From positions 2,084-66,083 of the forward strand of contig JAKSRK010000002.1 of NCBI GenBank assembly GCA_024403655.1: a DNA stretch of 64,000 nucleotides, given 5' to 3'. The translations under genes and the position numbers were made by a program. The stretch is from Saccharofermentans sp. Its GTDB lineage: Bacteria > Bacillota > Clostridia > Saccharofermentanales > Saccharofermentanaceae. The notes beneath the pieces were generated by a model. That model had not been told where the DNA came from. It made no database searches and saw nothing but the letters and a program-made list of their open reading frames with translations. The first letter of the stretch is position 1; each line of letters starts with the position of its first letter. Positions 29,390 through 60,837 of this stretch are shown here, one piece after another.

Positions 29390-31297
29390 TTAGACAGAAG
29401 CATTATATGAATCATACTGTTCCTGACTTATACTTCCACCACTCTCCAATATGCCTATTATTTCCCATGCTATATTCAGCATATTCTGGGGTACAGGATT
29501 ATTCTCCAAAGCTGCTGAAGCTATCGTATTATTACCGTCCACAGGAGCTATCCACATGTATTCTTCGCAAATACCTAAATCTATCGAAGTCAATTCAGCT
29601 GCAGTTAATTCTTCAGGATAAGCAGGTATGCAAAAACCCCATATAGCTGCTTCAGGATATTGTCTCCAATTGGTGACTCGACGCACCTGATCACTAGAAT
29701 TTCCTTCTAAAGTTATAAGATATCCTGTACTAGCATCATAAGATTCAACTATTCCGATATGCGATAAAGCGGAATGATTATCGTCCCATTCCCAAATAAC
29801 CAACCATCCAGGTTGAGGTTCAATAGTCGTTTGATAAGCTGTGTTCTGATACGTATATATGAATTCTCCAGGGTTATTCTCATTGTTAAACCATTCATAA
29901 TAGTAAACACAATCAATCAGGCAAGGAATAACTCCTGAATCAATATAACCATTCTGATCAGCACACCAGGAAACGAAGCAAGCACACCATGGAAAACGAT
30001 ATCCACTTCCGTTGGTATACCAATTACAGTAAGGTTCCCAACCATTTCCAACCTGTTGAGTTGCCACATCTATCATTCCAATGCCTGTACCTGTCTCAAT
30101 CATGCTCTCCAAAGAAGAGAACGATTCATCATATTGCGGATCCAGATAGTCAGCAAGAGCTGCTAATTCAGTATCATTAAAGCCTAATAGTGCAGCTACA
30201 ACATACGGATCAGGATGATAGCATAAAACCAAGAAACCATATGCGAATGTCAATCCTTCTGTCTGATAAGGTACTTCTGTAATAATGTATCTGAGTTCAA
30301 ATGGGGTTTCAAACTCATAGTAACTATTAAAGTCATAGCATACACAATTGCTTGCCCAAAACACTTCGGAAAAGTACTGATACGTATCACTGCCACTAGT
30401 GAACGTATTCTTATTATCAATATCTTTATCAGATACATATGCATAATAAAGCGATATAACATTTCTCCAAGGAATATCACCATTTAATACATATGGGTAG
30501 CACCAGCCTTCATCAATAAGTTCATCAGCATATATCTCAGCTCCGTTTATAACACTATTCTTATACATAGTTCTATGTTCACGACATACTTCCTGTAAAG
30601 AGAACGAATTACTAGAGTCCCAGAACGGCGTAGAAGGTACATATTTTGTTGCTGCCGAGCTACTAAAAAGCATAACAATTAGCATTTCTATCATCATCAC
30701 TATGGACATAACACCAACGACAGCAGCTTTTATTAGTGATGTTTTACTTTTAGGAATTACTGCAGTAGGCTTCACAGGATTTTTAGCAACGCTCTTATTT
30801 GTCTTAAAGAATCGCTCGATAAAGTTAGAATTCTGACTCCCTAGAAGTCTGTTATTCTCTACATTTTGTCTCACAGCAGCCATTCTAAGCTGATCGTTAT
30901 AATAGGACGAACTTGATGTTGGAGCCGTAGTTCCTTTGGGACTACTGACAATATGTCTTTGAATATTAGTTGAACCTTGATTCTCCTTTGGCTTTACTTC
31001 GGTTTTCTTACGCTTTTTACTTCGTGCCAAGTTGGCGCGAAGTTGCTGCGTTTTTGTTATGACTACATCCTGTGTTTTTTCTTTAACTATTGATGATACC
31101 GTTTCTGTCGTTAAACGGACAACTTTCTGATCCTGTTCATCATCCTGTCCAGACTCATCCATGCCTACATCAGCAATAGCTTTAACAGGCAAGTTAAAGT
31201 CGTCGATAGTTCTCTTGAATTTACGTTCGCGAGAAAATTCTCGATTAATAACTTTCTTATCAAATCTTTTCTTGTGATCTATAATCTTCATTTCCAA
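29390..31297 (-). CDS. CHAP-domain peptidoglycan hydrolase (VirB1 analogue)
   Basis: One TM segment; PWCACFVSWCA and HIGIVE..EGNS CHAP motifs; follows virB4. Confidence 0.85.
   Translation of the reverse strand: MEMKIIDHKKRFDKKVINREFSRERKFKRTIDDFNLPVKAIADVGMDESGQDDEQDQKVVRLTTETVSSIVKEKTQDVVITKTQQLRANLARSKKRKKTEVKPKENQGSTNIQRHIVSSPKGTTAPTSSSSYYNDQLRMAAVRQNVENNRLLGSQNSNFIERFFKTNKSVAKNPVKPTAVIPKSKTSLIKAAVVGVMSIVMMIEMLIVMLFSSSAATKYVPSTPFWDSSNSFSLQEVCREHRTMYKNSVINGAEIYADELIDEGWCYPYVLNGDIPWRNVISLYYAYVSDKDIDNKNTFTSGSDTYQYFSEVFWASNCVCYDFNSYYEFETPFELRYIITEVPYQTEGLTFAYGFLVLCYHPDPYVVAALLGFNDTELAALADYLDPQYDESFSSLESMIETGTGIGMIDVATQQVGNGWEPYCNWYTNGSGYRFPWCACFVSWCADQNGYIDSGVIPCLIDCVYYYEWFNNENNPGEFIYTYQNTAYQTTIEPQPGWLVIWEWDDNHSALSHIGIVESYDASTGYLITLEGNSSDQVRRVTNWRQYPEAAIWGFCIPAYPEELTAAELTSIDLGICEEYMWIAPVDGNNTIASAALENNPVPQNMLNIAWEIIGILESGGSISQEQYDSYNASV
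31018..31044. repeat. 27-bp ICE palindrome, copy 1 (inside the CHAP CDS)
   Basis: TACTTCGTGCCAAGTTGGCGCGAAGTT. Confidence 0.9.
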
Positions 31298-33647
31298 AGA
31301 TACCTTCGTTCTTCTTTGTTGAGAAAAGTTTATATATCAACGTTTTCTCAGGAATTACATTTGAGAAAGGTATATATACATCACCATACTTTAGTAATCC
31401 TGCGCCCTTTTCAGATTTGTCGAGCCATTTTGTATTCTCTTCGGATAAGTTATAAAACTCCTTGAGTGCCATTAGATCAACATCAGATTGGCTGGTCATG
31501 AATGTTACTTCAGAGTTAGCTAACATATTCGTAGTGATTTCATTCGTCATAAAACATTTTGCGTTTTGACTAATTGCATTAGGCATTCCGCTTCTTTTAC
31601 GCCACTGACGATATGCATTATCGAAGAATGTAGCTGTATTCGGATTAGATAAAAGAACCTGAGCCTCATCGAAGTCAATATATGTACTGCCTCCGTTTTC
31701 CCAATTTAGAGTAACCATATTGATTACTGCATCTGTAAGAACAAAAAGTGCTATAGGTTTTTCTATTTCTCTTAAGCCAAATAGATTAAATATCGTAATA
31801 CGCTTGCTATACATATCTACTGTAGATTCTTCAGCATATGTATTAAATGAACCTAGAGTAAACATTTCTAATTTCAGAGCCAATTGTCTTGCCTCTGCTT
31901 CTTCCTGTTGCGTAATAATTCTATGAAGCACACATAAAGTTGGCATTTCGCCTGTCTCAGAATAATTCTCATATGTTAATCTGACACATCTATCCAAAAT
32001 AGATCTCTCTTCAAGAGTAATAGGATGTTCAGGATCAGCCTGATTCAGAAGCGTCATAACGAACTGAGATTTTATACTAACTGGATTACTATTCTCATCA
32101 GTGCCATAATTCTTGACCATTTCCATACAGTTAATTTTATCTTTACCTGAACCAAGATTAACTACAGATACAAGCTCAGGACATAGATACTGATACAAAA
32201 CGGAGTATTCCCCTTCAGGATCAACAATTATATATTTATTATCTGTCTTCATGATTCTTTGAAGCTGGATCCATTTAATCAGCATAGATTTACCGCCGCC
32301 TGGCTTACCTACCATTACAGCGGACTGATTGATAAGATTTTCAAAATTAGGTACAACAAAATTTCTCGATATCTTGTTTTCGCCAATATGAACTCCACCT
32401 CTTTCAAGAAGATCAATACATTTAAATGGAGTTAATACAGATAAAGAAGATGTATTAAGTAATCTCATCTGTTTTACTCGCCATGCTCCATAAGGTAAAC
32501 AGGTGTTAAACACGTCAAACTGTTGCTGCGTAGCAACATCCAACTGGGCATTTGAACCTGAAGTTGATTTAACAGCCTTTTTAAGACTTCCTGTAATCTT
32601 ATCAAGTTCTTCTTTTGAATCGGCTATTATAACCATTGTTATGCATGCTGTAAGCATACGCTCATCGTTATTATGGATATCATCATCCCACTCACGGCAT
32701 GCAGCCTGTTCATTAAGTCTTTGTGCCGGGGGTACAGCTGTTATATCCTTTTGTCTTTCTTTCCAATCCTGAATTTTAGAATCTGCACTATCAGATTTAC
32801 TTCTAAGAAGTCGATCAGCTTCGTCAACAGGAACAGGTATTATATCTATAGAAAGCAGCATTCTATTAGATACATCTGTTAATGTCGATACAAATGAGTC
32901 TCTAAGTACATTCGCCCAGGAGATAAGATACAAAGAACGAACATACTTATCGTCGTCGATTATGATGTGATCACGTTTCCTTTTAATATGTGTTGGTGCC
33001 ACATAGTTTTTAAAATCATTACCAAAATAAGGACTTGTCGGATCTATATCTGGACGATACTCATCACCTTGATGGAAGAAGCTATGGAGAATAAATAGTC
33101 TTTCTTTGCTGTCTATTTCTTGTAATGAGGAACCCATTTCTTCAAGAGCTGATTTGAGATCATCATATAGTCTATTAAAGAACTTCTCGGCTTCAGTGAT
33201 ATTATCTCTTTTGATAGCTACAGTTATATATTTGTCCTGAAGTATTCCTCTGACTTTCTCAGTTTTTGTATCAATGATTTTATTGAAATCATAACCCGCC
33301 TGTACAAGCATCTTGTTTTCAGGATATCGCTCAGGTTCAAGATATAATCCTACGTCCAGATCTTTTGGATCAATAGGACGATTGTATACTGTTATCTTAG
33401 TTATAGCTTCAGGATCTAATGTATTGATAATCCCTGACCACTTAACACATATATCTGTTCTATTATCATAACTTGATACCATATAGTTAAGGTCAGTAAA
33501 CTTAAAGCTTTTGGTATAACGGTTATCTACCAAAAATATACCGCTTGCACCGTAAATTGCCTGTATAGGAATAAGATCCTGAGTCGTAGCAGGAACTTTA
33601 TATCTAACTTTACCTTCTTGTATTCGCTCTTTTAAAACATCAAGCAT
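31260..33647 (-). CDS. VirB4-like conjugation ATPase
   Basis: TAQDLIP-like start (TTQDLIP), GKPGGGKS, IIVDPEGEY, DFDEAQ, RKRSG..ISQN. Confidence 0.92.
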   Translation of the reverse strand: MLDVLKERIQEGKVRYKVPATTQDLIPIQAIYGASGIFLVDNRYTKSFKFTDLNYMVSSYDNRTDICVKWSGIINTLDPEAITKITVYNRPIDPKDLDVGLYLEPERYPENKMLVQAGYDFNKIIDTKTEKVRGILQDKYITVAIKRDNITEAEKFFNRLYDDLKSALEEMGSSLQEIDSKERLFILHSFFHQGDEYRPDIDPTSPYFGNDFKNYVAPTHIKRKRDHIIIDDDKYVRSLYLISWANVLRDSFVSTLTDVSNRMLLSIDIIPVPVDEADRLLRSKSDSADSKIQDWKERQKDITAVPPAQRLNEQAACREWDDDIHNNDERMLTACITMVIIADSKEELDKITGSLKKAVKSTSGSNAQLDVATQQQFDVFNTCLPYGAWRVKQMRLLNTSSLSVLTPFKCIDLLERGGVHIGENKISRNFVVPNFENLINQSAVMVGKPGGGKSMLIKWIQLQRIMKTDNKYIIVDPEGEYSVLYQYLCPELVSVVNLGSGKDKINCMEMVKNYGTDENSNPVSIKSQFVMTLLNQADPEHPITLEERSILDRCVRLTYENYSETGEMPTLCVLHRIITQQEEAEARQLALKLEMFTLGSFNTYAEESTVDMYSKRITIFNLFGLREIEKPIALFVLTDAVINMVTLNWENGGSTYIDFDEAQVLLSNPNTATFFDNAYRQWRKRSGMPNAISQNAKCFMTNEITTNMLANSEVTFMTSQSDVDLMALKEFYNLSEENTKWLDKSEKGAGLLKYGDVYIPFSNVIPEKTLIYKLFSTKKNEGIFGNEDYRSQEKI

Positions 33648-34035: not shown

Positions 34036-34043
34036 GACAAAAT

Positions 34044-35997: not shown

Positions 35998-36024
35998 AAC
36001 TTCTCGCCAAGTTGGCACGAAGTT
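35998..36024. repeat. 27-bp ICE palindrome, copy 2 (virB6/virD4 junction)
   Basis: AACTTCTCGCCAAGTTGGCACGAAGTT. Confidence 0.92.
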
Positions 36025-36027
36025 ACA

Positions 36028-36927
36028 TTACATATTAAATTTCTCTTTAATGAGAGTTCTTGTACCAAATACCATGAGAGCAAAAAACACTACTTTCAGG
36101 AGCATCATTATAAAGAACTGCCACATAGCAAATCCTGTAAACCAACTTGAAACATCCGTCCACAATCCATCGAGATCAAATACATCGGTCCCCATGAATG
36201 CAGCAAAAATATACAGCACACAAGTAAGTGCAACTCCGAAAAGGCAGTCACCAGCAAAACCTTTTATATAGGTTATTCCCATGTGCGATGTTTTTTCACT
36301 GCCAAAAAAGCACAAACCTATAGGAGCAAGCGATACTTCAACAAGTATGCGAAGAAATCTAGCCAGTAAATAAATATAAATAGCTGCTCCTATCAAAAGA
36401 ACAGCTATGCAAGAAATCAGCAAAAATAGCAGCGTTGGCGTTTTTGCAAACTGCATACTTATCAACTTTGCTATCCCACCAAATATATCTAGCAAAGACA
36501 AGTCACTAGTGTCAAAATCTAGAAAATCTTCAATTAAATCGTTAACAGCATCAGTAAACGTAATATGAAGATTTTCAGCAACAAGCGTTCTGTTAATAAG
36601 CGTTATCATGCCAATTGAGACATCCCAAAACCATATCATGATAGAAGTGCTGTAATGTACTGCTACGTTGGCAACAATATATCTTAAACTATGACCAACA
36701 AGTTTAGAGGGTTTAATCTCATGAACATTCTCTAACGATTGAGCTAGACCATATAAGAAGAATATCAAACAAAACGATTGTCCAACTGCAACCAAAGCTG
36801 AATTAATAGATGATACTATTGAATACACCTCAGGATAGGTATTCTCAATATCCCATTCCAAGAGAGAAATCACATTATCAGCAAAAAAGTTCCACATTGC
36901 CGTGACGAATTCTACAAATTCACCCAT
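36028..36927 (-). CDS. VirB6/TrbL-like polytopic T4SS membrane protein
   Basis: About 5-6 TM segments; RFLRILVEVSLAPI..F..SEKT..G..YIK pattern; position upstream of virD4. Confidence 0.75.
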   Translation of the reverse strand: MGEFVEFVTAMWNFFADNVISLLEWDIENTYPEVYSIVSSINSALVAVGQSFCLIFFLYGLAQSLENVHEIKPSKLVGHSLRYIVANVAVHYSTSIMIWFWDVSIGMITLINRTLVAENLHITFTDAVNDLIEDFLDFDTSDLSLLDIFGGIAKLISMQFAKTPTLLFLLISCIAVLLIGAAIYIYLLARFLRILVEVSLAPIGLCFFGSEKTSHMGITYIKGFAGDCLFGVALTCVLYIFAAFMGTDVFDLDGLWTDVSSWFTGFAMWQFFIMMLLKVVFFALMVFGTRTLIKEKFNM

Positions 36928-36932
36928 TATTA

Positions 36933-37841
36933 TTACCTTTCTCTGTTCTCTAACCCATTAGCAATAGTTCTTGCTTGACGTCGAGCTTCTTCACGAACCT
37001 TAGCTTCTTGCTCGTATTTTGCAAAGGACTGTTTAAAGCTTTTATTTTGCTTCTTATTATTCTCCTGATTAAGACTTATCGCCTGTTTCATTGGATCGGG
37101 CAAACCGTCTTGTGAGTTTATAAAATCCGTCTTTGAAGCTTCCTGAACTGTCAAATTCTCCTTTTCCTCCAACGAGTCTGGGTTTACTATTTCCTGATAA
37201 GCGATTAAATTCGGCTCTGAAAGATCTTTTGTTAGCTTCTGTTCCTTCAGAGCTTCGGGAAAATTTGCTTCTTTATCCTCGTTAGAATTAGAATGTTCCG
37301 ATGTCTTATTCGACTTAATCACATCAGAATTCTTCTGCTCAACTTTATCTTCTCGTTCTATCTCAGCTTTGGAGCCTTCAGGATTTTGAACTTTTTCCAT
37401 ATTGGTATGAAGCTTATGTTCATACTGCTCGAACCTCTTAGTACTAGACTGTTCAAGACTATATTCAATTAGTCCAAGTCTTTTACAGTATTCCTGGATA
37501 ACAGATGATAGCTTTTTATCGAATACAAGCAGTTTATTATTAGAAATATCATCTGAAACTACATATATCGGAATTCCTGCCTTAGATAACGGATCTAGTA
37601 ATTTTTGAGCATCTTCTTTATTCAGAGTAATCGCTCCAGGCTCTTTACCATCTTTTAAAAAAGCTTCACACGGATTCTTTTTATAGTACTGCTGCATTTT
37701 TTCCGCTTCAGACATTTTCTCGCGCTCGGCAGCATATTTTGCAACTATATCCATCATCACTCTTGAAGATGATTTTACAACTGTAGTTACCCCATCAACC
37801 ATTAATCTCATAGCATATGAGCCAACCTGTTCTTCAAGCAT
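36933..37841 (-). CDS. PcfB/DUF3801-like conjugation accessory protein
   Basis: MLEEQVGS..RLMVDG N-terminus, charged C-terminus, position upstream of T4SS genes. Confidence 0.5.
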   Translation of the reverse strand: MLEEQVGSYAMRLMVDGVTTVVKSSSRVMMDIVAKYAAEREKMSEAEKMQQYYKKNPCEAFLKDGKEPGAITLNKEDAQKLLDPLSKAGIPIYVVSDDISNNKLLVFDKKLSSVIQEYCKRLGLIEYSLEQSSTKRFEQYEHKLHTNMEKVQNPEGSKAEIEREDKVEQKNSDVIKSNKTSEHSNSNEDKEANFPEALKEQKLTKDLSEPNLIAYQEIVNPDSLEEKENLTVQEASKTDFINSQDGLPDPMKQAISLNQENNKKQNKSFKQSFAKYEQEAKVREEARRQARTIANGLENRER

Positions 37842-37846
37842 TTAGA

Positions 37847-40482: not shown

Positions 40483-40520
40483 AAAAAAGCACCCGATTTC
40501 TCAGGTGCTTCAGTAGTGTT
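40483..40520 (-). repeat. 38-bp terminator-containing segment duplicated at 55658-55695
   Basis: AAAAAAGCACCCGATTTCTCAGGTGCTTCAGTAGTGTT, exact in both places. Confidence 0.9.
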
Positions 40521-40523
40521 TTT

Positions 40524-40550
40524 AACTTTGCGACAAGTCGGTAAAATGTT
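40524..40550. repeat. 27-bp ICE palindrome, copy 3 (degenerate)
   Basis: AACTTTGCGACAAGTCGGTAAAATGTT; same position relative to the duplicated terminator as copy 9. Confidence 0.65.
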
Positions 40551-40983: not shown

Positions 40984-40992
40984 AACTACTTC

Positions 40993-51370: not shown

Positions 51371-52876
51371 TTAAACCCAAACAACTCCATTGATAGTAGC
51401 AGAACCTGCTGCCATCCAAGAATTGCTACTATAATCGTATTCCATACGCTGAAAACCAACAGAATACAAATAGTCCTGATAAGTGTCAGTCCAAATTGCT
51501 CTATGACCAGGAGAATTTAACAATCTGGTGTAAACATCCGTAGCATTAGTTCCACTTGCAAGATTCTCATCCATAGGGTAAGGACTACCACTTTGACCAT
51601 TAGGTCTTATATGTCCCCAAACAACCGTTGCTTCAGCAGCTCTTAGTCTAAAAGTATTGATTGCTTCCTGAGATACACCACTTGTAAGATACGGCTGTAA
51701 GCCTAATGTGTTTACTCGATAATTGTTAATCATGTTATCAAGCTCAGACATATCAACATAGTATCCATAAATTCTCTGTGTCTGTCCGTTACCCATATCA
51801 ATATCAATGATTTCATAGCCGTTAGCTCTTGCAGAAGCATCAATATCAAATGCTGCTGACGGAGTAGAGGGAGTTACAGGACTAGGAGCCGGAGCAGGAG
51901 CAGGTGCAGTTGTTTCATAGAAACAATTTGATGTACTACCAGGAGCAGCGGATCCAACAGGAAGTATTAGTACCTCAATACCTTCGAGTCTGTATCCATA
52001 TCCGGCACTACCACAAGGAGCACCGTCCTTTGCCCAACCTGTCCAACCAAAGTTCTGTACGTGTGTTCTATACCACACATTGTAGCTACCTGAATTACTA
52101 CCATTAAGAGAAATTTCAATAGCTTCAAGTCTCAAACTCTGTCCTTCTGTACCGGACATTGCTCCATTGGATACCCAACCTTGCCAACCAATGTTCTGTA
52201 CGTGTGTCTTGTACTGGATACCTACACCGGAGATATTAGATGAAATCTTTATACCTTCAAGTCTAAGGCTCTGCCCTGTTGTACCAGACATAACACCATC
52301 GGTTACATTTGACTGCCAACCAATGTTCTGAACGTGAGTATTATATGTAACAAATGTAGGAGAAGCACCTGCCGGTACTACTCTAATCTCAATGCCTTCA
52401 AGTCTTAAGCTCTGACCTTCTGTACCAGCCATTGCTCCATCCTTAACCCAAGACATCCAACCGATATTCTGTACGTGTACTCTATAGTAAATATCGTAGT
52501 TAGAGGCATTACTACCTGTAAGCTCAATCTTGACACCCTCAAGTCTTAAAGATCTACCTTCTGTACCGGACATTGCTCCGTTGGATACCCAACCTTGCCA
52601 ACCATCATTCTGAACATGAGTCTTGTATCTAACACCTAAGTTCTGACCTGAGACATTAACCTTCAATCCCTCAAGTCTTAAACTCTGTCCTTCTGTACCG
52701 GACATTGCTCCATTAGATACACTTGTCTGCCAACCAACATTCTGTACGTGTGTACTGTAAGATACACTTACGTCGGTATTAGAAGCAGCCATGACGTTCT
52801 GGGGCAACACAAAAAGCATAAGAAGAATTGAAAGCACAACTGTTATGCTTGTAATCCTTATATTTTTATTCTTCAT
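51371..52876 (-). CDS. Secreted protein with six ChW (clostridial hydrophobic W) repeats and a C-terminal CAP/SCP domain
   Basis: Repeated Y.THVQN.GWQ..V..GAMSGTEGQSLRLEG; HIRPNG, ENLA, NSPGHRA. Confidence 0.85.
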   Translation of the reverse strand: MKNKNIRITSITVVLSILLMLFVLPQNVMAASNTDVSVSYSTHVQNVGWQTSVSNGAMSGTEGQSLRLEGLKVNVSGQNLGVRYKTHVQNDGWQGWVSNGAMSGTEGRSLRLEGVKIELTGSNASNYDIYYRVHVQNIGWMSWVKDGAMAGTEGQSLRLEGIEIRVVPAGASPTFVTYNTHVQNIGWQSNVTDGVMSGTTGQSLRLEGIKISSNISGVGIQYKTHVQNIGWQGWVSNGAMSGTEGQSLRLEAIEISLNGSNSGSYNVWYRTHVQNFGWTGWAKDGAPCGSAGYGYRLEGIEVLILPVGSAAPGSTSNCFYETTAPAPAPAPSPVTPSTPSAAFDIDASARANGYEIIDIDMGNGQTQRIYGYYVDMSELDNMINNYRVNTLGLQPYLTSGVSQEAINTFRLRAAEATVVWGHIRPNGQSGSPYPMDENLASGTNATDVYTRLLNSPGHRAIWTDTYQDYLYSVGFQRMEYDYSSNSWMAAGSATINGVVWV

Positions 52877-53108
52877 CTTGTATCTCCTTGAAATCAATAC
52901 CACTATCAAAGTTCTTCATTATGAAATCACAATACTTAATCAAGCGTTCTTGAAACTTATAATCTTTGTATTGCTGATATGAAATTAATATTGCACCATC
53001 ATACGGACTCTTTCTGTTAGTTATTCTAACAGCTTCTCGATTAGATGCTGCAAGCTCATAATATTGTCTCAGCTGTTCCCTAAATTCTGTTAAGTTCACT
53101 TCTTTCAT
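52866..53108 (-). CDS. Phd/YefM-family antitoxin
   Basis: MKEVNLTEFREQL...V.ITNR....AILISY pattern; own SD and promoter. Confidence 0.75.
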   Translation of the reverse strand: MKEVNLTEFREQLRQYYELAASNREAVRITNRKSPYDGAILISYQQYKDYKFQERLIKYCDFIMKNFDSGIDFKEIQDEE

Positions 53109-53147
53109 AATGATAATCTCCTTTGCTAAATATAGTTATCTAGCAAT

Positions 53148-53175
53148 ATTATAACACTTCTGTACAGTTAATCAA
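53148..53175 (-). promoter_or_regulatory. Promoter of the Phd-like gene
   Basis: TTGATT-16 bp-TATAAT with an extended -10 TG; GTACAGTT direct repeats nearby. Confidence 0.55.
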
Positions 53176-53212
53176 TTCTATCAGTACAGTTGCGGAGATC
53201 CACTTTAAATCC

Positions 53213-54010
53213 TTAAGACCCACATATGCCACAAGGAACATACTCTTCAGCAATCATAGAACTGTGATTACCTTCTATGATAATCTGATTTTCAACAGGA
53301 ACATTCATAAGCTCATCACAGAATGGTACATGGAATGTACGCGATTGAATATCAACTATATATCCTATTGTTGTTTCAGTAGGTACTACGGGTTCAGGTG
53401 TTGGAGTTGCTGTCGGTGTAGTAGCAGTAGTTTCAGTCTCAGATGTTACGGTAGTCTCTGTAGCATTGGGATAAAGCTCAACATACTCAGTATCGTTTAT
53501 CTCCGCAACTACAATAACGTCTCCACACTGAACCTCTACTCGACTCCATTCCTTATATGATAAATAAACAATTAATCCGTTATATGATCTTCCTGGATTG
53601 ATGGAAACAGATCTAAACAAAAGGTTATTATCTACAACCCAAGGGTAGTCTACATAGTTTTGCTCAATTGCTTTCTGATTATCGAGATAACCTGAAATCG
53701 AATCTCCTATAGATACATATACTGATGCATCCGTATTATTCGTGTATGTAACATCGCATACTACATAGAAATAATCCGCATCGTGAAAATTCTTGATGCT
53801 ATTCACGCAAAAGGTAAAATCCTCTGTTTCAACTTCATCTCCTATATCGTAGTAAAGTTGACTCTCTTCCGTTTCATCAGATCCATCAACTTCTACTGAA
53901 GATGAGTCAGAATCTATGACATCCTCAGCTTTCTTAATCTTGCAGCTTGAAGCGAAGCCGCAGAATACAATTCCAGAAAGCATCACACATGCTATCTTTT
54001 TTAATTTCAT
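53213..54010 (-). CDS. Lipoprotein with an Ig-like middle domain and a C-terminal Ada-like Zn motif
   Basis: Lipobox ASSC; T/P linker; FHVPFC...CGIC. Start ATG 54010 behind GAAAGGAG. Confidence 0.65.
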   Translation of the reverse strand: MKLKKIACVMLSGIVFCGFASSCKIKKAEDVIDSDSSSVEVDGSDETEESQLYYDIGDEVETEDFTFCVNSIKNFHDADYFYVVCDVTYTNNTDASVYVSIGDSISGYLDNQKAIEQNYVDYPWVVDNNLLFRSVSINPGRSYNGLIVYLSYKEWSRVEVQCGDVIVVAEINDTEYVELYPNATETTVTSETETTATTPTATPTPEPVVPTETTIGYIVDIQSRTFHVPFCDELMNVPVENQIIIEGNHSSMIAEEYVPCGICGS

Positions 54011-54023
54011 AGTTACTCCTTTC

Positions 54024-54050
54024 AACTTCTCGCCAAGTTGGCGCGAAGTT
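54024..54050. repeat. 27-bp ICE palindrome, copy 8
   Basis: AACTTCTCGCCAAGTTGGCGCGAAGTT. Confidence 0.93.
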
Positions 54051-54051
54051 A

Positions 54052-55098
54052 TCAATGCTCAAATTCTCGTTCGATTTTCTTTGGTTTCTTTTTGACTACA
54101 TCAAGAGAAGGAGCATCTTGATCAAGCTGTTTATCTTTTTGCTTGAACTCCGCTTTTTCCATGATGTACTCTTCGATACCCGTTGCAACATCGATTGCTT
54201 TAAAGAGTTCTTCTGGCTCTTTTTCTAGTACCTCAATCCAAGACTGTATATATGCTGCATGATTATTTACATGCTGCTCATCCAATCCTAGGCCAAACTC
54301 AGCACAGATAAAAGACGAAGCAATCTCAGCTCTAAGTTCTTCTTTAGCATAAGTGATATTACCAAAGCCATCATTATTTACAAGTGTGTCACGATTTAAC
54401 CTTGAAGAATGTCCTGTAGCATGACATAACTCATGAAGCTGAGTTGAATAGTAATACTCAGGAGATTTAAACGCTCCGCTAGGTGGAATTACTACGGTAT
54501 CTTTTGTAGGCGAATAATATGCTCTGGAACCTTCTTCTATATAATTGACACCCATATTCTCAATGATCTTGCCGATTCTAACATCAGCATCTATCGAATT
54601 CTCTTTTAGGTGTTCCAATTCAGGATCAGGCTCAAGTCCGTTAATGATATCGCCATTAAACACATAATAGTTTCTCCAAGGACGGATATAGCAGTTCTTA
54701 GGATTGATTTCATCGTTATTGACCAGCTTCTTGTAGTCCTCAAACGAGATCATCTTCTTAAGTTCTGAAGAATAAACACCATAATATGTAATAGGCACTC
54801 CCATTCCCTTCGCTTCGTCCTTGAACATTTGACCAGTAATATTATGCTTTTCGCGATAATCTTTAATCTGATTAAATGTCATCCATCTTCTATCGCTCCA
54901 TCCTGCATCCGCAGCTACTATAGCCAGAAGCAATGCATTCTTTCCCTTATAGGCTCTATTGGTTATTCCGTTCCTGTTTCCTGAGAGATTCTTCCAACCT
55001 TTAATCCAGGGAAGTTCATCTTCTTTAAGACAGCTGATATATTTATCAATCAGCATTTGTTTTGTTTTATCCTTTTCAAAATTACTCTTCGTCGGCAT
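54052..55098 (-). CDS. ArdC-family antirestriction protein (ArdC-N plus zincin-like MPTase)
   Basis: LPWIKGW, Y.GKN.LLL, RWMTFNQI, VFN, AYYSP..D.VVIP, HELCHATGH (HExxH), YAKEELRAE. Confidence 0.9.
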   Translation of the reverse strand: MPTKSNFEKDKTKQMLIDKYISCLKEDELPWIKGWKNLSGNRNGITNRAYKGKNALLLAIVAADAGWSDRRWMTFNQIKDYREKHNITGQMFKDEAKGMGVPITYYGVYSSELKKMISFEDYKKLVNNDEINPKNCYIRPWRNYYVFNGDIINGLEPDPELEHLKENSIDADVRIGKIIENMGVNYIEEGSRAYYSPTKDTVVIPPSGAFKSPEYYYSTQLHELCHATGHSSRLNRDTLVNNDGFGNITYAKEELRAEIASSFICAEFGLGLDEQHVNNHAAYIQSWIEVLEKEPEELFKAIDVATGIEEYIMEKAEFKQKDKQLDQDAPSLDVVKKKPKKIEREFEH

Positions 55099-55645
55099 AT
55101 TCAACAAGCTCTCCTTCCCCTAATTCCATCTCGATATCTTCTGTAAAGATATCTTCAGCTGCAATACCATTAAGCTTTGCAAATTCATTAAGATCTTCAC
55201 TGTGAATAACCATTTTTAAAACCTCCTGTGAATCTGATAAATCTATCGGCTCAACTTCGTGCCTACCGTAATAGAATTCATATTTCAATTTATTATGCGA
55301 GGGATATAAGAAGTCACCTACCGCACCAAGCTTAACCTTATACCCTAGCCTGTTCCATTCTTCTTCTAACCGTAGATTAACTGTATCGATATCAGTTCTA
55401 AACTCCGTTCCATAACTAGTCATAAGTGGAAGAACTTTACCCAAGGAATTTCTGTTCTGAATTCGTGTGAAACCGATTGGAGACAAAGAAGCATTGTATC
55501 CAATCAAACAAAATATCGGCTCTCTTGTTTCTGGATCCCTATAAAAACCCCACGATACATATGAAAATGTATGATTTCTATTCTGAATCACCCCGGTATC
55601 TCTCCAAAACTTCAGATTACCTATATGCACAATCTCATATTTCAT
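55082..55645 (-). CDS. Hypothetical protein
   Basis: ORF with SD GGAGA; no recognisable motif. Confidence 0.6.
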   Translation of the reverse strand: MKYEIVHIGNLKFWRDTGVIQNRNHTFSYVSWGFYRDPETREPIFCLIGYNASLSPIGFTRIQNRNSLGKVLPLMTSYGTEFRTDIDTVNLRLEEEWNRLGYKVKLGAVGDFLYPSHNKLKYEFYYGRHEVEPIDLSDSQEVLKMVIHSEDLNEFAKLNGIAAEDIFTEDIEMELGEGELVEYADEE

Positions 55646-55657
55646 TTTATCTCCCAT

Positions 55658-55695
55658 AAAAAAGCACCCGATTTCTCAGGTGCTTCAGTAGTGTT
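55658..55695 (-). repeat. 38-bp terminator-containing segment duplicated at 40483-40520
   Basis: AAGCACC/GGTGCTT hairpin plus T6 on the minus strand. Confidence 0.9.
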
Positions 55696-55698
55696 CTT

Positions 55699-55725
55699 AA
55701 CTTCGCGCCAACTTGGCACGAAGTT
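55699..55725. repeat. 27-bp ICE palindrome, copy 9
   Basis: AACTTCGCGCCAACTTGGCACGAAGTT. Confidence 0.95.
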
Positions 55726-55727
55726 CC

Positions 55728-56594
55728 TTAACGCTCGATTTCTCGGTCTTTTGCCTTAGTTCTTTCCTTATCAAGTTTTTTCACACACTCTCTTGTTGCT
55801 TCAAGTATTTTGATCTGCGCCTTATATTCTTCAATAATGGACTCTTTAAAGATCCTCAAGAATGAACTAGGATCAGCTTTAACCTGCCAATCTTCAAGGG
55901 CTCCGTTATATTCACCCTTGGCAGATGCCTTAATAGTTATCTGCGGATAGCCGAATGAAACTAACATGGCATTCATTATGTTGCGTCCGGTTCGCCCGTT
56001 ACAATCAATAAAAGGATGTATACGCTCAAACATAGCATGAAACGCAGCAATCTTAACCAACGGATGATTCGGACAATTATTAAACTGATAAACGAGATCC
56101 GCCATACACTCTCTAATATAGAAAGCATCTACAGGCGCAGTCATGGAACCTTTAATAATTGCCGGAGACATACGATATACGCCTCTAGTTCGAGGTTGAC
56201 AATCAAGAGCAGTCCTCTGATGAGTATCTTTTATATATTCTTCGGTAAGCTGCGGATACTCAGATATCGTTTCGACTGCATAACTACATCCCTCAAAACA
56301 ACCTTTGGCAGCAAATATATCTCTAAGTTTGCTGTCAGGACGATGTGGAGGGAATTCACCGTCAAGAACCAATGCCGTATCCCCAAGACTTAATGTGCTT
56401 CCTTCTAAAGAATTAGAGTTATATACAAATCTGACTTTGAAGTCTTCTTCGTAACTCTGAAGACCATCAAGATCCGTTTCATTAAAGGGCTTTAAACTTT
56501 CGTATTTAGCTTTAAGCTCCTCAACCTCATCGAAATAGTCAAAGGCCACCGAAGTATTGAATGCTTGATATAACTGTTCTCCAACTTCACTCAT
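55728..56594 (-). CDS. Fic-family protein (class II, N-terminal inhibitory motif)
   Basis: HPFIDCNGRTGR signature variant; SNSLEG fits (S/T)xxxE(G/N). Confidence 0.9.
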   Translation of the reverse strand: MSEVGEQLYQAFNTSVAFDYFDEVEELKAKYESLKPFNETDLDGLQSYEEDFKVRFVYNSNSLEGSTLSLGDTALVLDGEFPPHRPDSKLRDIFAAKGCFEGCSYAVETISEYPQLTEEYIKDTHQRTALDCQPRTRGVYRMSPAIIKGSMTAPVDAFYIRECMADLVYQFNNCPNHPLVKIAAFHAMFERIHPFIDCNGRTGRNIMNAMLVSFGYPQITIKASAKGEYNGALEDWQVKADPSSFLRIFKESIIEEYKAQIKILEATRECVKKLDKERTKAKDREIER

Positions 56595-56654
56595 AACAGG
56601 CTCCTTTATCCTTCACATGTTGCGATTATAGCATTTATATCTATTATAAAGAAT

Positions 56655-56681
56655 AACTTCGCGCCAAATTGGCGAGAAGTT
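56655..56681. repeat. 27-bp ICE palindrome, copy 10
   Basis: AACTTCGCGCCAAATTGGCGAGAAGTT, adjacent to an extended -10 (TGCTATAAT, 56625-56633 minus) upstream of fic. Confidence 0.93.
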
Positions 56682-56683
56682 AA

Positions 56684-57010
56684 TTAACGTTCGATACCTT
56701 TATCTTTAGTCTTAGGCTGCTTAGTAGATTTTATGTGATTCACTATAGTATTCAATTCTTGTTCCATCATCATGCCTCGCTAGTTGTTCTTGAAAATATA
56801 CTTTCTGTACGGAAGTCTTTTGCCATTGGATGTTTCTTGTTCAGGTCGGATATAACCGATTACTGAGTTATTGCTTGAGAGACCAACTAAACAAGAAATG
56901 TATTCTTTACAGTTCGGATCAAAATATTTACCATCAGCTACATAGTCAAACCCTTTATAGCAGCTATGCTTTGGAAAACCTATTTGGATGATTGAATTCT
57001 TTATTCTCAT
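56684..57010 (-). pseudogene. Probable pseudogene: no SD, internal in-frame TAG
   Basis: The frame continues past TAG (56780-56782) as RGMMMEQELNTIVNHIKSTKQPKTKDKGIER-stop, the same tail style as neighbouring genes. Confidence 0.6.
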
Positions 57011-57047
57011 AGTTCGTGCCAACTTCGCGCCAAGTTGGCACGAAGTT
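57010..57047. repeat. 27-bp ICE palindrome, copy 11 (extended by an extra 11-bp period)
   Basis: TAGTT-CGTGCC-AACTT-CGCGCC-AAGTT-GGCACG-AAGTT. Confidence 0.92.
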
Positions 57048-57408
57048 ATCTTTCTAATCCTCTATACTTATGTTTTACAGATTCTTTTTCAGTTTCACCT
57101 TTTAAACGTTGGTTTTGTTCAACTTCTTCCTGAACCTTCAAACGAGTTAATCTTTCATTCAGATTGTGAAGATTTTCAAAACTTGAATCAGTTACCACCT
57201 GCGAAAGCTTATCCAAATATAGTCTCATATCAGAACCAAATTCAGTTTTCTGTTTCATTGCAAACAGAAGCTTATATAAATTCTGCAATTTAGAATCATA
57301 CTCTAAAGTTAATTTTGTAGCTTCTGAAATACTCAAGTCATCTTTTGCTATTTCATTTACATTTTCTTGAAGAACAGTTTTTAAAAGCTCATAAAATTCT
57401 TCGTCCAT
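57046..57408 (-). CDS. Hypothetical helical protein
   Basis: SD AAAGGAG; ends KYRGLER. Confidence 0.65.
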   Translation of the reverse strand: MDEEFYELLKTVLQENVNEIAKDDLSISEATKLTLEYDSKLQNLYKLLFAMKQKTEFGSDMRLYLDKLSQVVTDSSFENLHNLNERLTRLKVQEEVEQNQRLKGETEKESVKHKYRGLER

Positions 57409-57422
57409 CTTGCATCTCCTTT

Positions 57423-57449
57423 CTCGCTGCGCCAACTTGGCGCGAACTT
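57423..57449. repeat. 27-bp ICE palindrome, copy 12 (one arm degenerate)
   Basis: CTCGCTGCGCCAACTTGGCGCGAACTT. Confidence 0.8.
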
Positions 57450-59337
57450 ATCTTTCCATTCCCTGATTGCGATTTATATGATGAACTGGAGCTGTTTTTC
57501 TTTCTCCGGCTGATAACAGTTCCATGCTATATTTTTTAAGATCAGAATCCTTAACCGGATATGAGTATTTAAGAATTGCTTTGAACTTACCATCTGGATC
57601 TGTACCTTGATAAAGCAGATTCTCCATAGGTTGCATACCATATCCAAAAGAGTGATGTATCCCATATACATATGCGTTGTCGTATTCGTTACTTTTAAAA
57701 TGATCATAATAACCATTGAGACTTTCAGATATAACCATAGGCTTTTCTATTCCTTTCATTACATCCCTAACATGTTTATGCCATCTTTTGATAAATTCTG
57801 TTTGGGCTGCATTATGAATCGGCCTGTTATATGCTAAAAATTTTTGTTTTATTGTTGATCCATCCGGAGACAATTCAATTGTAACAAGTGAAGTATTGGG
57901 AGTTCTTTTTTCCCTCATAACAAATATTAGTGATGTACCAGAAAGGATTCTGTGGTAATAGCTTGCAACACAATTATGCTGTTGATTAGCTTCATTTAAT
58001 AAATCCTCATGGCTTCGTATTCCACGAATAAAGAATAAATCCTCTTCATAATCATACTTACGCAAGTTATCAGTAGCATTTTTTTCTTTAAGTTTATCCG
58101 CTGCGTTTCGGTTAACAGATGAAGCTATTCTATAATTTCGTGAAACTACATCGTGTTCTCTTTTAAGGGAATCTCCATCAATCTTTGGTTTAATATTCAG
58201 GGACTGACATTGTCTTAAATAATCATCGATTAATATTAATGCTTCATCAGTACCAATTGCTTCATACATATCTACTCGTTGTAAATAAGTCATTAATGAA
58301 GGGAACGTGAATACTTGCTTATTTTCATATTTTCTTCCAAGGATACTGGAAATCTGATCTAGCTGTTTTTTGGAGAGTCTTGCATCATAAGCAAGCTGTA
58401 TTTCATTGTTACCTAGCCTTCCAAACTTATCCATCTTCCTGTAGTTATCCCAAACAAATATATCTGCTTCTGATTTTAAAACTTTGCACACCACTTGCGA
58501 TGTTTTAAAAATGTTTTTCAATTTTCCAGGATTATCAAGTCTTTTTATTAATCGATTGTAACTATCCAACTTACCCTGATCCAACTCTGAATTCTTATTT
58601 AATGGCTTGATGGCAGCTACATATTTCTCTGCAAACAGATAACCAGCTTTAATCAAACTTTCAAGTTCCGGTGCAGCCAGGATTGTCAACGGTTCAGGAT
58701 CTATTAATCCTTTATACCCATTTTCCTTATATCTTTCATCAAAAAAATATTTATAGGTCCAAGGTTTAACCTCTTTTAAAATGTCTAACAATTCATCATT
58801 TGTTTGATAGCATCCTATACATTTTTCATGAAAGCGTTCATTTATTTTCCAATCTGATTTTTCACATATACTAATAGTTCTACTTACTCGATCTAAATCA
58901 AGCTTAACGTATGCTTCCCAAACTCGTGAGTTTTCATCTACATAGTAGATATAGTACGGTTCTGTATTACTAATAGTTCTTAAATCATTATAGGCATTGT
59001 ACCAACGTGATTTTATAGGTAATGTGTAATCATCATTATTTTGATGAGTGATATTGTTTCCAAGCACTTTTAAATCACAAAAAACCCCAAAAATTTCTAA
59101 ATCACTGAATAAATCAACCTTATTCCACATTTCTTTGATATCAGGATTTAAAACTGGCTTTTCAACCTTTTTTGCTTCTTTTTTCTTTGGAGCATCTACG
59201 ATCTTAGGAACGCTTTCGGAAGTAATACTTTTATCATTCAAAATTACAGGTTTTCTATCAAGTGTTACTGCAATCTCTTCTTCCGCTATTTTAATGAGTT
59301 CATCAAATGTAATCTGGTTAGATTCATCAGCTGCCAT
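57448..59337 (-). CDS. PcfJ-like domain protein
   Basis: DDYLR..L..EHD, DLLNEANQQHNCVASY..I..R...P..SLVTIEL. Confidence 0.8.
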   Translation of the reverse strand: MAADESNQITFDELIKIAEEEIAVTLDRKPVILNDKSITSESVPKIVDAPKKKEAKKVEKPVLNPDIKEMWNKVDLFSDLEIFGVFCDLKVLGNNITHQNNDDYTLPIKSRWYNAYNDLRTISNTEPYYIYYVDENSRVWEAYVKLDLDRVSRTISICEKSDWKINERFHEKCIGCYQTNDELLDILKEVKPWTYKYFFDERYKENGYKGLIDPEPLTILAAPELESLIKAGYLFAEKYVAAIKPLNKNSELDQGKLDSYNRLIKRLDNPGKLKNIFKTSQVVCKVLKSEADIFVWDNYRKMDKFGRLGNNEIQLAYDARLSKKQLDQISSILGRKYENKQVFTFPSLMTYLQRVDMYEAIGTDEALILIDDYLRQCQSLNIKPKIDGDSLKREHDVVSRNYRIASSVNRNAADKLKEKNATDNLRKYDYEEDLFFIRGIRSHEDLLNEANQQHNCVASYYHRILSGTSLIFVMREKRTPNTSLVTIELSPDGSTIKQKFLAYNRPIHNAAQTEFIKRWHKHVRDVMKGIEKPMVISESLNGYYDHFKSNEYDNAYVYGIHHSFGYGMQPMENLLYQGTDPDGKFKAILKYSYPVKDSDLKKYSMELLSAGERKTAPVHHINRNQGMER

Positions 59338-59357
59338 ATCAAATTCCTCTTTTCTTG

Positions 59358-59666
59358 CTATGCTACAGTACTTGGATAACAGTTTTTCATGGTTTCTCTG
59401 TACTGTTCGTCTGAGTCCATTTGTGTCTCCTGATACATAGTCAAATATTGAATTGTAATGAAGCTATCCGTCTTTGTTGCGTGACAGACATTTGATAATG
59501 AAGCGAAGCATTTTTCAGCTTCAACTAATTCTGTATCTTCAAACTCATATCCCAAAACAATTTCTTCATCATTTTGGTTGTTATAAAGAAGTTCTTCGAA
59601 ATCATCAGCATTAAGGGAACTAAATACTCCATCAACATCTGTTTTTATCACTTCTAACCTAATCAT
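59358..59666 (-). CDS. Hypothetical acidic protein
   Basis: 102-aa ORF with SD AAAGGG directly after a palindrome copy. Confidence 0.6.
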   Translation of the reverse strand: MIRLEVIKTDVDGVFSSLNADDFEELLYNNQNDEEIVLGYEFEDTELVEAEKCFASLSNVCHATKTDSFITIQYLTMYQETQMDSDEQYRETMKNCYPSTVA

Positions 59667-59679
59667 AATTAATCCCTTT

Positions 59680-59706
59680 CACTTTACGCCGATTTGGCTA
59701 AATGTT
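59680..59706. repeat. 27-bp ICE palindrome, copy 13 (degenerate)
   Basis: CACTTTACGCCGATTTGGCTAAATGTT, 8 bp from copy 14. Confidence 0.55.
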
Positions 59707-59714
59707 TTGCAATA

Positions 59715-59741
59715 AACTTTGCGCCAACTTGGCGAGAAGTT
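59715..59741. repeat. 27-bp ICE palindrome, copy 14
   Basis: AACTTTGCGCCAACTTGGCGAGAAGTT. Confidence 0.92.
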
Positions 59742-59745
59742 CTTG

Positions 59746-60780
59746 TTATACAGAATTGATTCCTACTTCGCTAAATAAATCAAAGATTGCATCAGAGTAT
59801 TCATTTTCTGCATCGTTCATTATTAACGTTTCTTCGGGTTTAATGTAACTGTCAGCTTTTATTCCTGCTTCAGCTCCAGTCTTAAGCACGTTACGTTTTG
59901 TAGAAGACTGCTCTTTTCTGTAAGCACATTTATTAGCTTCATGCTGCTTCTGCATATAAACTGTAGCTTCATCAGTAGAAGTAATTCCTGACTCAAACCA
60001 CTCTGTAAGAGTCGCGTCAACGTGCTTAAGTTGAAGCTTATCTTTTCTAAACAAGTTGTCCTGGATAGCAAGTCTAATGAGATCCAATGAGCAGTTCATA
60101 CTTTTCCATTTATTGACGAAATATTTGCCGGATAACGAAATATCCTTTTCGTCAAAAACTGAAGAAATGATATCAGCGGTGGCAGCGGTCTCAGAAAAAC
60201 AGCTTTCTTCTGAAATATCACTTACTTTAAGTTTAGTACTACTACCACTACTATTAGTCTTATTCTTTTTAGTATTATTTATATCAGTCTTATTTGCTCC
60301 CAAATTTTGGGACTCTTGATTCACAAATAATGGGATTCCAGAATCCCAAATTTTGGGATTCCGGACTCCCAAATTTTGGGATTCCGGAAGAACCGTTGAT
60401 TTTATTGAGTTTTCAGAAGATTCTGTTTCTATTTCATCAGTAAAATCCTTAACGTAGATCTTATCCGGACGATTTAATCCTTGTTTAATCTTCTCAACAA
60501 GACCTATAGAAACAAGTTCTTGCATCAATTTTGTTACTGTATTTTTTGAACATCCTAAATCTTCTATTATTTCATTGTTGGTGTAGTAAATATAAACATG
60601 ATTGTTATCATCTATCCAACCGTTTCTAATCGATAGACTAGCACGATCCATAAGAAGAGAATATAGAAGTTTAGCGTCTGTACTAATCTTCTTAAACTTT
60701 GGATCTTTCACCAATTGTTTAGGAATAACAAAATAAGAATAGCTGGTAGATTTTTCTAAACTTAAATAATTAAACTTCAT
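59746..60780 (-). CDS. repA: RepA_N-family replication initiator with C-terminal DnaD/DnaB_2-like domain
   Basis: FVIPKQL..AKLLYSLLMDRASLS..NGWIDD..YIYY...ELVSIGLVEKIKQGLNRPDKIYV. Confidence 0.9.
   Translation of the reverse strand: MKFNYLSLEKSTSYSYFVIPKQLVKDPKFKKISTDAKLLYSLLMDRASLSIRNGWIDDNNHVYIYYTNNEIIEDLGCSKNTVTKLMQELVSIGLVEKIKQGLNRPDKIYVKDFTDEIETESSENSIKSTVLPESQNLGVRNPKIWDSGIPLFVNQESQNLGANKTDINNTKKNKTNSSGSSTKLKVSDISEESCFSETAATADIISSVFDEKDISLSGKYFVNKWKSMNCSLDLIRLAIQDNLFRKDKLQLKHVDATLTEWFESGITSTDEATVYMQKQHEANKCAYRKEQSSTKRNVLKTGAEAGIKADSYIKPEETLIMNDAENEYSDAIFDLFSEVGINSV
60298..60381. repeat. Intragenic repA iterons (candidate oriV)
   Basis: Three copies of palindromic TCCCAAATTTTGGGA (60298, 60344, 60367) encoding SQNLG repeats. 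RepA_N origins are known to lie within repA. Confidence 0.8.
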
Positions 60781-60810
60781 ATGACTTCCCTTCTTATATT
60801 ACGACAAGCA

Positions 60811-60837
60811 AACTTCGCGCCAACTTGGCGCAAAGTT
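60811..60837. repeat. 27-bp ICE palindrome, copy 15 (parB/repA junction)
   Basis: AACTTCGCGCCAACTTGGCGCAAAGTT. Confidence 0.93.

Follow-up and report, generated by a model that had tools for sequence, protein, structure and literature searches.

Dispersed 27-bp palindromes in an integrative and conjugative element of Saccharofermentans sp. as candidate binding sites for the element's own ParB-family protein

The window analysed here is a stretch of 64 000 nt from Saccharofermentans sp. (contig JAKSRK010000002.1, assembly GCA_024403655.1), in which the genes between 26.8 and 62.5 kb all lie on the minus strand and constitute an integrative and conjugative element (ICE) of the Firmicutes type with a G+C content of 36–38%. 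At the low-coordinate edge of the ICE, beside three tRNA genes, is a phage-type tyrosine integrase gene (26871–28037, minus strand), followed by genes for a resolvase, a CHAP hydrolase, VirB4, PrgI and VirD4. Next in order are a relaxase, DUF3990, MobC/NikA, DUF3991-Toprim, ArdC-N, a pilin-like protein, DUF5688 and SNase, and the high end carries a thioester/LPXTG adhesin, a ChW protein, Phd, an ArdC metallopeptidase, Fic, DUF7339, PcfJ, RepA_N, ParB and ParA. The parA gene (61744–62535, minus strand), which encodes a Walker-type ATPase (AAA_31, 3.4e-53, and CbiA), forms the other edge and overlaps the start of parB (60849–61751, minus strand), the product of which contains ParB_N (1.4e-9) and HTH_ParB (3.7e-8) domains and a recognition helix reading GDS-A-RNINRYLRL. 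Dispersed through this element are 15 copies of a palindrome, none of them beyond the integrase gene, and it is the relationship between these palindromes and the ParB-family protein that is considered here.

The palindrome is 27 nt long and consists of two 13-nt arms (consensus AACTTCGCGCCAA) around a single free centre base. It is present at all 15 coordinates, between 31.0 and 60.8 kb, at which a preliminary description of this DNA had placed it; 11 copies in the window have no more than three mismatches to the consensus, against none in 100 dinucleotide-preserving shuffles, and the copies at 40524, 41679, 57423 and 59680 are degenerate. The preliminary description had found no copy in the chromosomal flanks, and a position weight matrix (PWM) scan of the entire draft genome (124 contigs, 2.15 Mb, 43% G+C) bears this out, with copies solely within the ICE on the window's contig; among 301 genomes of the same order, the motif is found in three. 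Only the copy at 42050 is a perfect palindrome, with 13 of 13 positions paired, the remaining copies pairing at 11–12 of 13. As had been described, the centre base varies among G, C, A and T across the window copies, and AAnTT boxes recur, at positions 1, 12 and 23 of the palindrome. The window half-sites read GCG (13 half-sites), GTG (8) or TCG (4) at positions 6–8, and their pairing matches independent assortment. The earlier claim that the two halves do not covary thus holds within the window, but not across elements, where the arms covary strongly.

Eleven of the 15 copies begin 0–4 nt 3' of a stop codon, and in most an SD (Shine–Dalgarno) sequence comes directly next. This is the layout that had been given as typical; it does not extend to the copy at 31018–31044 (11/13 pairs, half-sites GCG/GTG in the sense orientation), which lies between the VirB4 and CHAP hydrolase genes at ~215 nt from the VirB4 stop codon, or to the degenerate copy at 41679–41705, which lies within the 3' end of the mobC/nikA open reading frame (ORF), where it is read as ..SSCQLGVE.., and is followed by the SD and start codon of the DUF3990 gene. 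The copy at 35998–36024 (11/13 pairs) begins 3 nt past the stop codon of a 299-aa ORF and has the VirD4 gene, with its SD and GTG start, directly behind it; that at 42050–42076 (GTG/GTG) begins 1 nt past the stop of a 63-aa ORF with the mobC start just downstream; that at 43898–43924 overlaps the TAA stop of the ArdC-N-like gene and precedes the SD and ATG of the DUF3991-Toprim gene; and that at 45150–45176 is 2 nt past the stop of the DUF5688 gene. At the high end, copies are found 1 nt past the ArdC stop (54024–54050, followed by the SD and ATG of a DUF4352 lipoprotein gene), 2 nt past the Fic stop (55699–55725, followed by an intrinsic terminator at 55661–55686 on the minus strand) and directly 5' of a conserved promoter-like element for Fic (56655–56681). 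The TAA stop of the DUF7339 gene is overlapped by a feature at 57010–57047, made up of a copy at 57021–57047 with an extra 11-nt half-site in front (57010–57020), and the TAA stop of PcfJ by a copy with a degenerate outer arm (57423–57449), after which DUF7339 begins with its SD and ATG. A copy 4 nt past the RepA_N stop (59715–59741) lies 8 nt from a degenerate one (59680–59706, PWM score 14 bits) that is followed by the SD and ATG of a 102-aa ORF. The last copy (60811–60837) begins 11 nt past the parB stop, upstream of repA_N, and is present also in a second contig (L128), whose ParB is 96% identical. No target-site duplications were seen around the copies. The degenerate copy at 40524–40550 (PWM score 16 bits), 1 nt past the stop of a 143-aa ORF, is followed by a terminator module in common with copy 55699; this module of ~65 nt, a palindrome plus an intrinsic terminator (GCACCTGAGAAATCGGGTGC and a T run), occurs in the window at 40486–40550 (after the 143-aa ORF) and 55661–55725 (after Fic), and in a related ICE contig, referred to below as L140, at L140:4829–4910 (after Fic).

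The placement of the copies may be understood from the way in which genes of the element adjoin one another. Junctions without a copy have the form GAA-AGG-TAA-N5-9-ATG, with the SD of the next gene embedded as Glu-Arg-stop, and in junctions with a copy the Glu-Arg-stop is kept and is followed by the palindrome and then by a new SD. The copies occupy the position between stop and SD because in such compact junctions the gap after the stop codon is the only free place. Palindrome-free junctions at 36927–36940, 37841–37850, 40983–41000 and 39124–39130 end in GAA/GAG-AGG-stop with the next start 2–9 nt on, and a C-terminal ER, reflecting a compact SD junction or its relic, occurs in seven of the 34 translated ORFs between 26.8 and 63.9 kb (33 from the ICE and one flanking gene). 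It was considered whether the C-terminal ..(G/E)-hydrophobic-E-R/H tails belong to the repeat or serve as a type IV secretion signal, and both possibilities were rejected, since palindrome-free junctions end in GAA-AGG-TAA too; the ER/EH tails are best read as relics of a compact junction into which a copy and a new SD were placed.

A scan with a degenerate form of the motif, taking one genome per species, returned at least 120 stretches from gut and rumen Bacillota (Lachnospiraceae, Oscillospiraceae, Ruminococcaceae, Erysipelotrichaceae and Bacilli). In ~100 of the 120 matches listed, a single copy lies inside a parB homologue, the product of which is 28–40% identical to the window's ParB, and the usual neighbourhood is ParA-ParB-RepA_N or MobC-relaxase-ParB. 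This internal copy has a constant frame and place, encoding ..QGxRxDL-TS-x-Q-(V/L)-G-x-K.. immediately 5' of the helix–turn–helix (HTH) segment. Both arms of the internal sites change jointly, and the encoded residues change with them (SCQVGTK, SRQVGEK, SCQVGKK, LRQVGAK); 27 of 45 unique internal sites, falling into six half-site classes, are perfect at positions 3–13. The set of 120 stretches was ascertained by the motif, and five ParB relatives were hence fetched by protein similarity alone. All five carry a 27-nt quasi-palindrome at the same place in parB, with the same outer arms (AACTTC/GAAGTY) and an inner 7 nt that differ but are compensated. The flanks of internal and dispersed copies show no convincing homology. 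In one ParB of the conserved clade (P0005), exactly the nine palindrome-encoded residues are missing (..QGQRS-KSRSNEE..), as after a precise deletion of the palindrome, and the encoded loop is therefore dispensable for an intact reading frame. Palindromes also occur outside parB in two stretches resembling integrative and mobilizable elements (IMEs; gene order Fic, array, MobC, relaxase), where noncoding arrays (L096:1400–2900 and L059:4200–5050) hold at least 20 different perfect palindromes with a 1-nt centre, a shared CAA-N-TTG, often AACTTC/GAAGTT arms and an individually compensated inner sequence. These arrays could be collected sites for many ParB specificities, allowing an IME to hitch-hike on any helper ICE, or could be a structural hairpin array.

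The internal sites diversify together with the protein segment that follows them. When different loop classes are compared across 115 closely related ParBs, a 32-residue stretch made up of the loop that the palindrome encodes, the helix after it and the recognition helix is 51% identical, against 85% for the rest of the protein. For the motif-bearing set, half-site positions 7–8 can be predicted from one residue, the X of (D/E)S-X-R at the helix start, which aligns with the first recognition-helix residues of solved ParB, Spo0J and Noc structures: Ala goes with G(T/C) in 48 of 54 half-sites, Glu or Gln with TC (31/32), Ser or Thr with TT (9/10) and Pro with GT (4/4). On a tree from which the cassette had been masked, the site followed X in an average of 7.9 out of eight phylogenetically independent pairs differing in X and never went in the opposite direction (sign test, p ~0.008). 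Internal hybrid GCG/GTG sites also exist, in L020, L026 and L112. In three elements the copies sit away from parB, and there too they fit this rule. The window ParB has X=Ala, and 21 of its 26 half-sites are G(C/T) with four being TC; in Granulicatella balaenopterae DSM 15827, where X=Glu, there are 14 TC-class copies on four contigs, abutting SDs; and in L140, where X=Ala, the copies are uniformly of the GTG class.

The L140 contig, found via a Fic homologue 84% identical to that of the window, encodes ParA, ParB, a 490-aa protein, Fic, a 187-aa protein, ArdC, DUF4352, Phd and ChW. Its ParB is canonical, with a GHRR motif and an internal site, and in addition perfect copies are located after parB (L140:1954), before Fic (L140:3870), after Fic (L140:4829) and after ArdC (L140:6518), as positional orthologues of the window copies at 60811, 56655, 55699 and 54024, respectively. 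Nucleotide homology between the window and L140 covers 4.4 kb at 71% identity. Where the flanks can be aligned, at three junctions, 70 of 81 site positions are identical, against 333 of 501 flank positions, and the differences between window and L140 sites are confined to position 1, positions 6–8 and 20–22, or the centre. An unchanged core amid diverged flanks indicates that the constant core of the site is under purifying selection. It had been proposed to compare gene order between homologues for changes exactly at the repeats, and one junction shows such a change: the left end of the homology block falls exactly at copy 56655, where the upstream flank is identical at 40 of 84 positions and the downstream flank at 72 of 80. 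The other three of the four orthologous junctions are homologous on both sides. The conserved 80-nt flank at copy 56655 (90% identical in L140) contains what reads as an extended -10 box, TGnTATAAT (56625–56633, minus strand), 21 nt downstream of the copy; a two-hexamer consensus promoter scan, which gave fewer matches than in shuffles, did not pick up this element. That a copy abuts a conserved promoter hints at a control role. Relative to L140 the ICE is a mosaic on either side of this point, 52289–56687 having Fic and ArdC at 81–84% protein identity and 56688–62600 having ParA at 56% and ParB at 40%; the RepA_N, PcfJ and DUF7339 genes of the window are replaced in L140 by the gene for the 490-aa protein. 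Before copy 56655, the segment 56684–56780 contains a tail ..KQPKTKDKGIER-stop without an ORF of at least 50 codons and has the appearance of a gene-end remnant, upstream of which L140 has no homologous DNA.

We hypothesize, and consider it probable on comparative sequence grounds, that the palindromes are double-stranded DNA binding sites of the parS or operator type for the element's own ParB-family protein (60849–61751). The preliminary description had favoured a dimeric protein binding double-stranded DNA, of either the ParB or the ribbon–helix–helix type, and the choice can now be narrowed to ParB, given a palindrome inside parB in ~100 of the other elements listed, its co-diversification with the recognition helix and its retention at the L140 junctions. 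The locus has several features of a type Ia ParABS system, namely a ParB with ParB_N and HTH domains, an adjacent Walker-type ParA and a palindrome beside or in the par operon; as in a KorB/OB network, for which ten or more dispersed copies would be expected, there are 15 copies over 30 kb of the ICE and none elsewhere in 2.15 Mb.

Among the matches listed, most ICEs and IMEs of this family in Clostridia and Bacilli carry one site, in frame in parB and just 5' of the HTH, and our current working hypothesis is that in a sub-lineage including the window ICE extra copies were placed in short intercistronic gaps right after stop codons. A ParB dimer would dock at each site with one monomer per 13-nt arm; arm positions 2–5 and 9–13, which are constant, would be read by all family members, and specificity would reside in positions 6–8, to be read by the N-terminal part of the recognition helix. 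Some 15 ParB–DNA complexes might then mark the element for ParA-driven maintenance, control its long co-directional operons in the manner of KorB, or both, the maintenance role concerning the excised element, presumed to replicate by means of RepA_N. It is tempting, and as yet speculative, to go further and to regard site and reader as a single hypervariable specificity cassette of ~100 bp by which elements escape incompatibility, with the derived ParB of the window reading its ~15 copies as a static network of operators or roadblocks and the copies doubling as junctions for module exchange.

A number of observations weigh against ParB as the reader. Every link between site and ParB is comparative, and the internal site and the recognition-helix codons are <100 bp apart, so that their covariation may reflect co-transfer by recombination and alone is no proof of read-out. 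The elements with copies away from parB escape this caveat for that reason, but they number three (the window, Granulicatella and L140). The window copies are mostly imperfect (one of the 13 good copies is perfect) with four of 26 half-sites in the TC class, which could mean that selection has relaxed, or that the system is decaying and its ParB is crippled. The window ParB itself sits on a long unsupported branch, and its specificity is thus extrapolated. Perfect compensation at positions that a protein need not read would suit a hairpin or cruciform as well, the position of copies between stop codon and SD is unlike that of most KorB operators, and the IME arrays of at least 20 palindromes with differing inner sequence are not explicable by one ParB specificity.

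The window ParB is a derived protein. It resembles the chains of solved ParB, Spo0J and Noc structures (phmmer, 5.5e-11 and weaker; matched structures 4UMK, 6SDK and 7OL9), but in place of the cytidine triphosphate (CTP)-binding motif GERRLRA/GERRWRA/GERRFRA of solved ParB and Noc, or the GHRR of its relatives, it has GHQTRHA; it also lacks the nine-residue palindrome-encoded loop and hence an internal site. The closest relatives, at 96% identity, come from a 3.4-kb contig with a copy after parB; the next are at most 39% identical, and a metagenome scan with the window ParB as query found no relative. A loop-less ParB, a degenerate CTP motif and dispersed sites are found in combination in both the window and Granulicatella. 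From its sequence, the window ParB probably stays bound at its sites as a static protein and does not form a sliding clamp gated by CTP. We considered that the sites had multiplied as compensation for lost CTP binding and rejected this idea, since in L140 the same junctions carry copies although its ParB has an intact GHRR motif and its parB an internal site; dispersal is therefore older than the changes in the window ParB.

An alternative explanation is that the copies are functionless relics of an ancestral canonical ParB, such as that of L140, and have been drifting since the CTP motif and internal site were lost. The contrast between L140, with perfect uniform copies, and the window, with heterogeneous copies of which three to four are clearly degenerate (40524, 41679, 57423 and 59680) and a loop-less GHQTRHA protein, would be expected on this basis. 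We nevertheless find it very improbable: where flanks have diverged by ~29–34%, only one change is seen among the 20 core positions across three to four orthologous sites, which argues for continued purifying selection on the site core in at least one of the window and L140 lineages, probably both. Moreover, the variable positions in the window stay within the classes tolerated by Ala-type ParBs, as in the hybrid sites of L020, L026 and L112, and the window parB ORF is intact, with a 96% identical copy in another sample. Nor are the palindromes repetitive extragenic palindromes or the related interspersed mosaic elements (REP/BIME), which are present in hundreds of chromosomal copies, often with a RAYT transposase; the absence of any copy outside the ICE and the presence of the motif in only three of 301 genomes led us to reject this identity, which had been named among the findings that would overturn the earlier interpretation.

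Two further explanations call on recombination and on single-stranded structure. In the former, which we think unlikely, the copies are junctions at which modules are exchanged by homologous recombination between repeats, or by recombination that the resolvase or integrase catalyses, with ParB binding at most secondary. The exact end of the L140 homology block at 56655, with wholly different gene content from parB to that point, is what it predicts, as are the DUF3990 gene and its 143-aa partner (40552–41658), which split mobC from a relaxase gene that is adjacent to it in L059, L096 and L142 and are bracketed by the degenerate copies 41679 and 40524. Modules of copy plus flank also recur, ~45 nt including the terminator being shared by 40524 and 55699 and an 18-nt upstream tail by 42050 and 54024, and the hybrid half-sites of the window are the expected remnant of exchange at the dyad between different site classes. 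However, only a single breakpoint could be compared, at a place where the conserved promoter would by itself end a conserved block, and homology on both sides of three of the four orthologous junctions means that most copies are not breakpoints. Tyrosine recombinases require a crossover spacer of 6–8 bp and serine recombinases make a central 2-bp staggered cut in a site of even length, and palindrome arms that abut around one base are unfit for either type of core; neither the resolvase nor an integrase of the window type co-occurs with the motif in the 120 matches listed, whereas parB does. Cassette recombination of the lox or attC kind, raised as a primary function in the preliminary description, is thus not supported, the spacer being 1 nt and IntI absent. 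A core site of the lox/FRT type was rejected on the spacing of the arms, the likeness to loxP amounting to ~10 nt of outer arm. Integron attC sites are sequence-diverse imperfect palindromes with R''/L''/L'/R' boxes, recombined by IntI and arrayed downstream of attI/Pc; here the copies are near-identical, the lone tyrosine recombinase is phage-type, and the association, in the matches listed, is with parB. The copies may have a secondary role as module junctions, to which the breakpoint at 56655 points. In the latter explanation, which is also improbable and slightly more so, the copies work as single-strand hairpins, either as intercistronic RNA stem–loops in stabilization, processing or translation coupling or as sites for priming or protein loading on the transferred single-stranded DNA. 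The stem is GC-rich with 11–13 pairs, copies lie between stop and SD at most junctions in the window and Granulicatella, inner bases are fully compensated across elements, the IME arrays with only the CAA-N-TTG centre and outer arms in common have a structural look, and the ICE encodes a primase-like DUF3991-Toprim protein. The stop/SD geometry, however, follows from compact junctions alone, and sense-strand T.G and C.A mismatches are balanced (12 vs 9 for the internal sites, 7 vs 6 for the window copies), so that neither strand is favoured. The AA/TT next to the single centre base cannot pair in a hairpin, yet is invariant, which is the signature of a two-fold symmetric duplex, and a single copy inside the parB coding region of most elements is unexplained by an RNA or single-stranded DNA model. 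In the sense orientation the copies lack a trailing U tract, and they are therefore not intrinsic terminators; no Rfam family matches the palindrome. The mRNA-processing hairpins proposed earlier as a primary function are accordingly set aside for want of both a U tract and a strand bias.

Binding of the palindromes by the ICE's own ParB would have both parallels and differences in known systems. In Bacillus subtilis, a chromosomal parS lies inside spo0J/parB, and specificity is set by a few residues in or near the recognition helix. Relatives of the window element likewise have a palindromic site within their own ParB gene, but this is 27 bp rather than 16 bp long and occupies a loop of its own just ahead of the HTH segment, as part of a hypervariable cassette of ~100 bp, the loop having been lost in the window ParB. 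The stoperators of mycobacteriophage L5 (Brown et al., 1997) reportedly comprise many repressor sites in short gaps between co-directional genes, at which the bound protein can block an elongating RNA polymerase; they are 13 bp long, asymmetric, orientation-dependent and bound by a phage repressor, unlike the symmetric ParB-linked sites described here, and the analogy is functional only. The KorB protein of the IncP-1 plasmid RK2, which recognizes the 13-bp OB palindrome, is a CTP-dependent sliding clamp locked by KorA or TrbA, and serves both partition and global gene control (McLean et al., 2025; PMC11790492). In both cases a ParB-family gene lies beside that of a ParA-type ATPase on a conjugative element with about a dozen scattered palindromes, some far from promoters. 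In contrast to OB, the present site is 27 bp long with constant outer arms and centre, and most copies are intercistronic, right after stop codons, rather than in promoter regions; the palindromes belong to an integrated ICE of a Gram-positive host. In contrast to KorB, the window ParB lacks the GERRxR arginines, and no KorA/TrbA-like partner was identified, none having been sought beyond Pfam annotation. BisD of the Gram-negative ICEclc is a CTP clamp that activates transcription with BisC, controlling transfer genes at a distance from specific sites (Antar et al., 2025; PMC12409273); it too is an ICE-encoded ParB-like protein, but the sequence, number and architecture of bisS are unrelated to those of the palindromes, and the ICE showed no homologue of BisC. 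ParT of the Streptomyces plasmid SCP2 is CTP-independent, has no CTPase domain and loads at one 18-bp parS, from which it still diffuses (Sukhoverkov et al., 2025; PMC12260392). The window ParB resembles ParT in belonging to a conjugative element and, as judged from its sequence, in having no functional CTPase motif, and differs in retaining a ParB_N fold with a degenerate motif and in facing ~15 sites. Any downstream effect of the bound sites is modelled on these three systems (PMC11790492, PMC12409273, PMC12260392).

Major vehicles of gene flow, the ICEs of gut and rumen Clostridia have control circuits that are almost unstudied, and we found no specific description in the literature of the motif or of ParB sites in Clostridia ICEs. 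If our hypothesis is correct, these elements would have a Gram-positive KorB-like system in which one ParB and its cognate sites join maintenance, gene control and perhaps module exchange. The rule connecting helix residue and half-site would predict which ParB reads which element, and could help to delimit ICEs and to assign compatibility groups in metagenomes. The window would be a natural variant that has lost the CTP motif and kept the dispersed sites, with a bearing on work on ParB without CTP-driven sliding. A reading of the palindromes as lox or attC sites, tempting but wrong, would also be removed.

Two minor observations concern the integrase end of the ICE. The three tRNA genes (26563–26827, plus strand) directly adjoin the integrase gene, and this region is likely to be the integration target region of the element. 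Between the integrase and resolvase genes, a segment at 28293–28385 on the minus strand scores just below the Rfam gathering threshold for the pemK RNA motif (32.3 bits, threshold 34.8; E 0.03).

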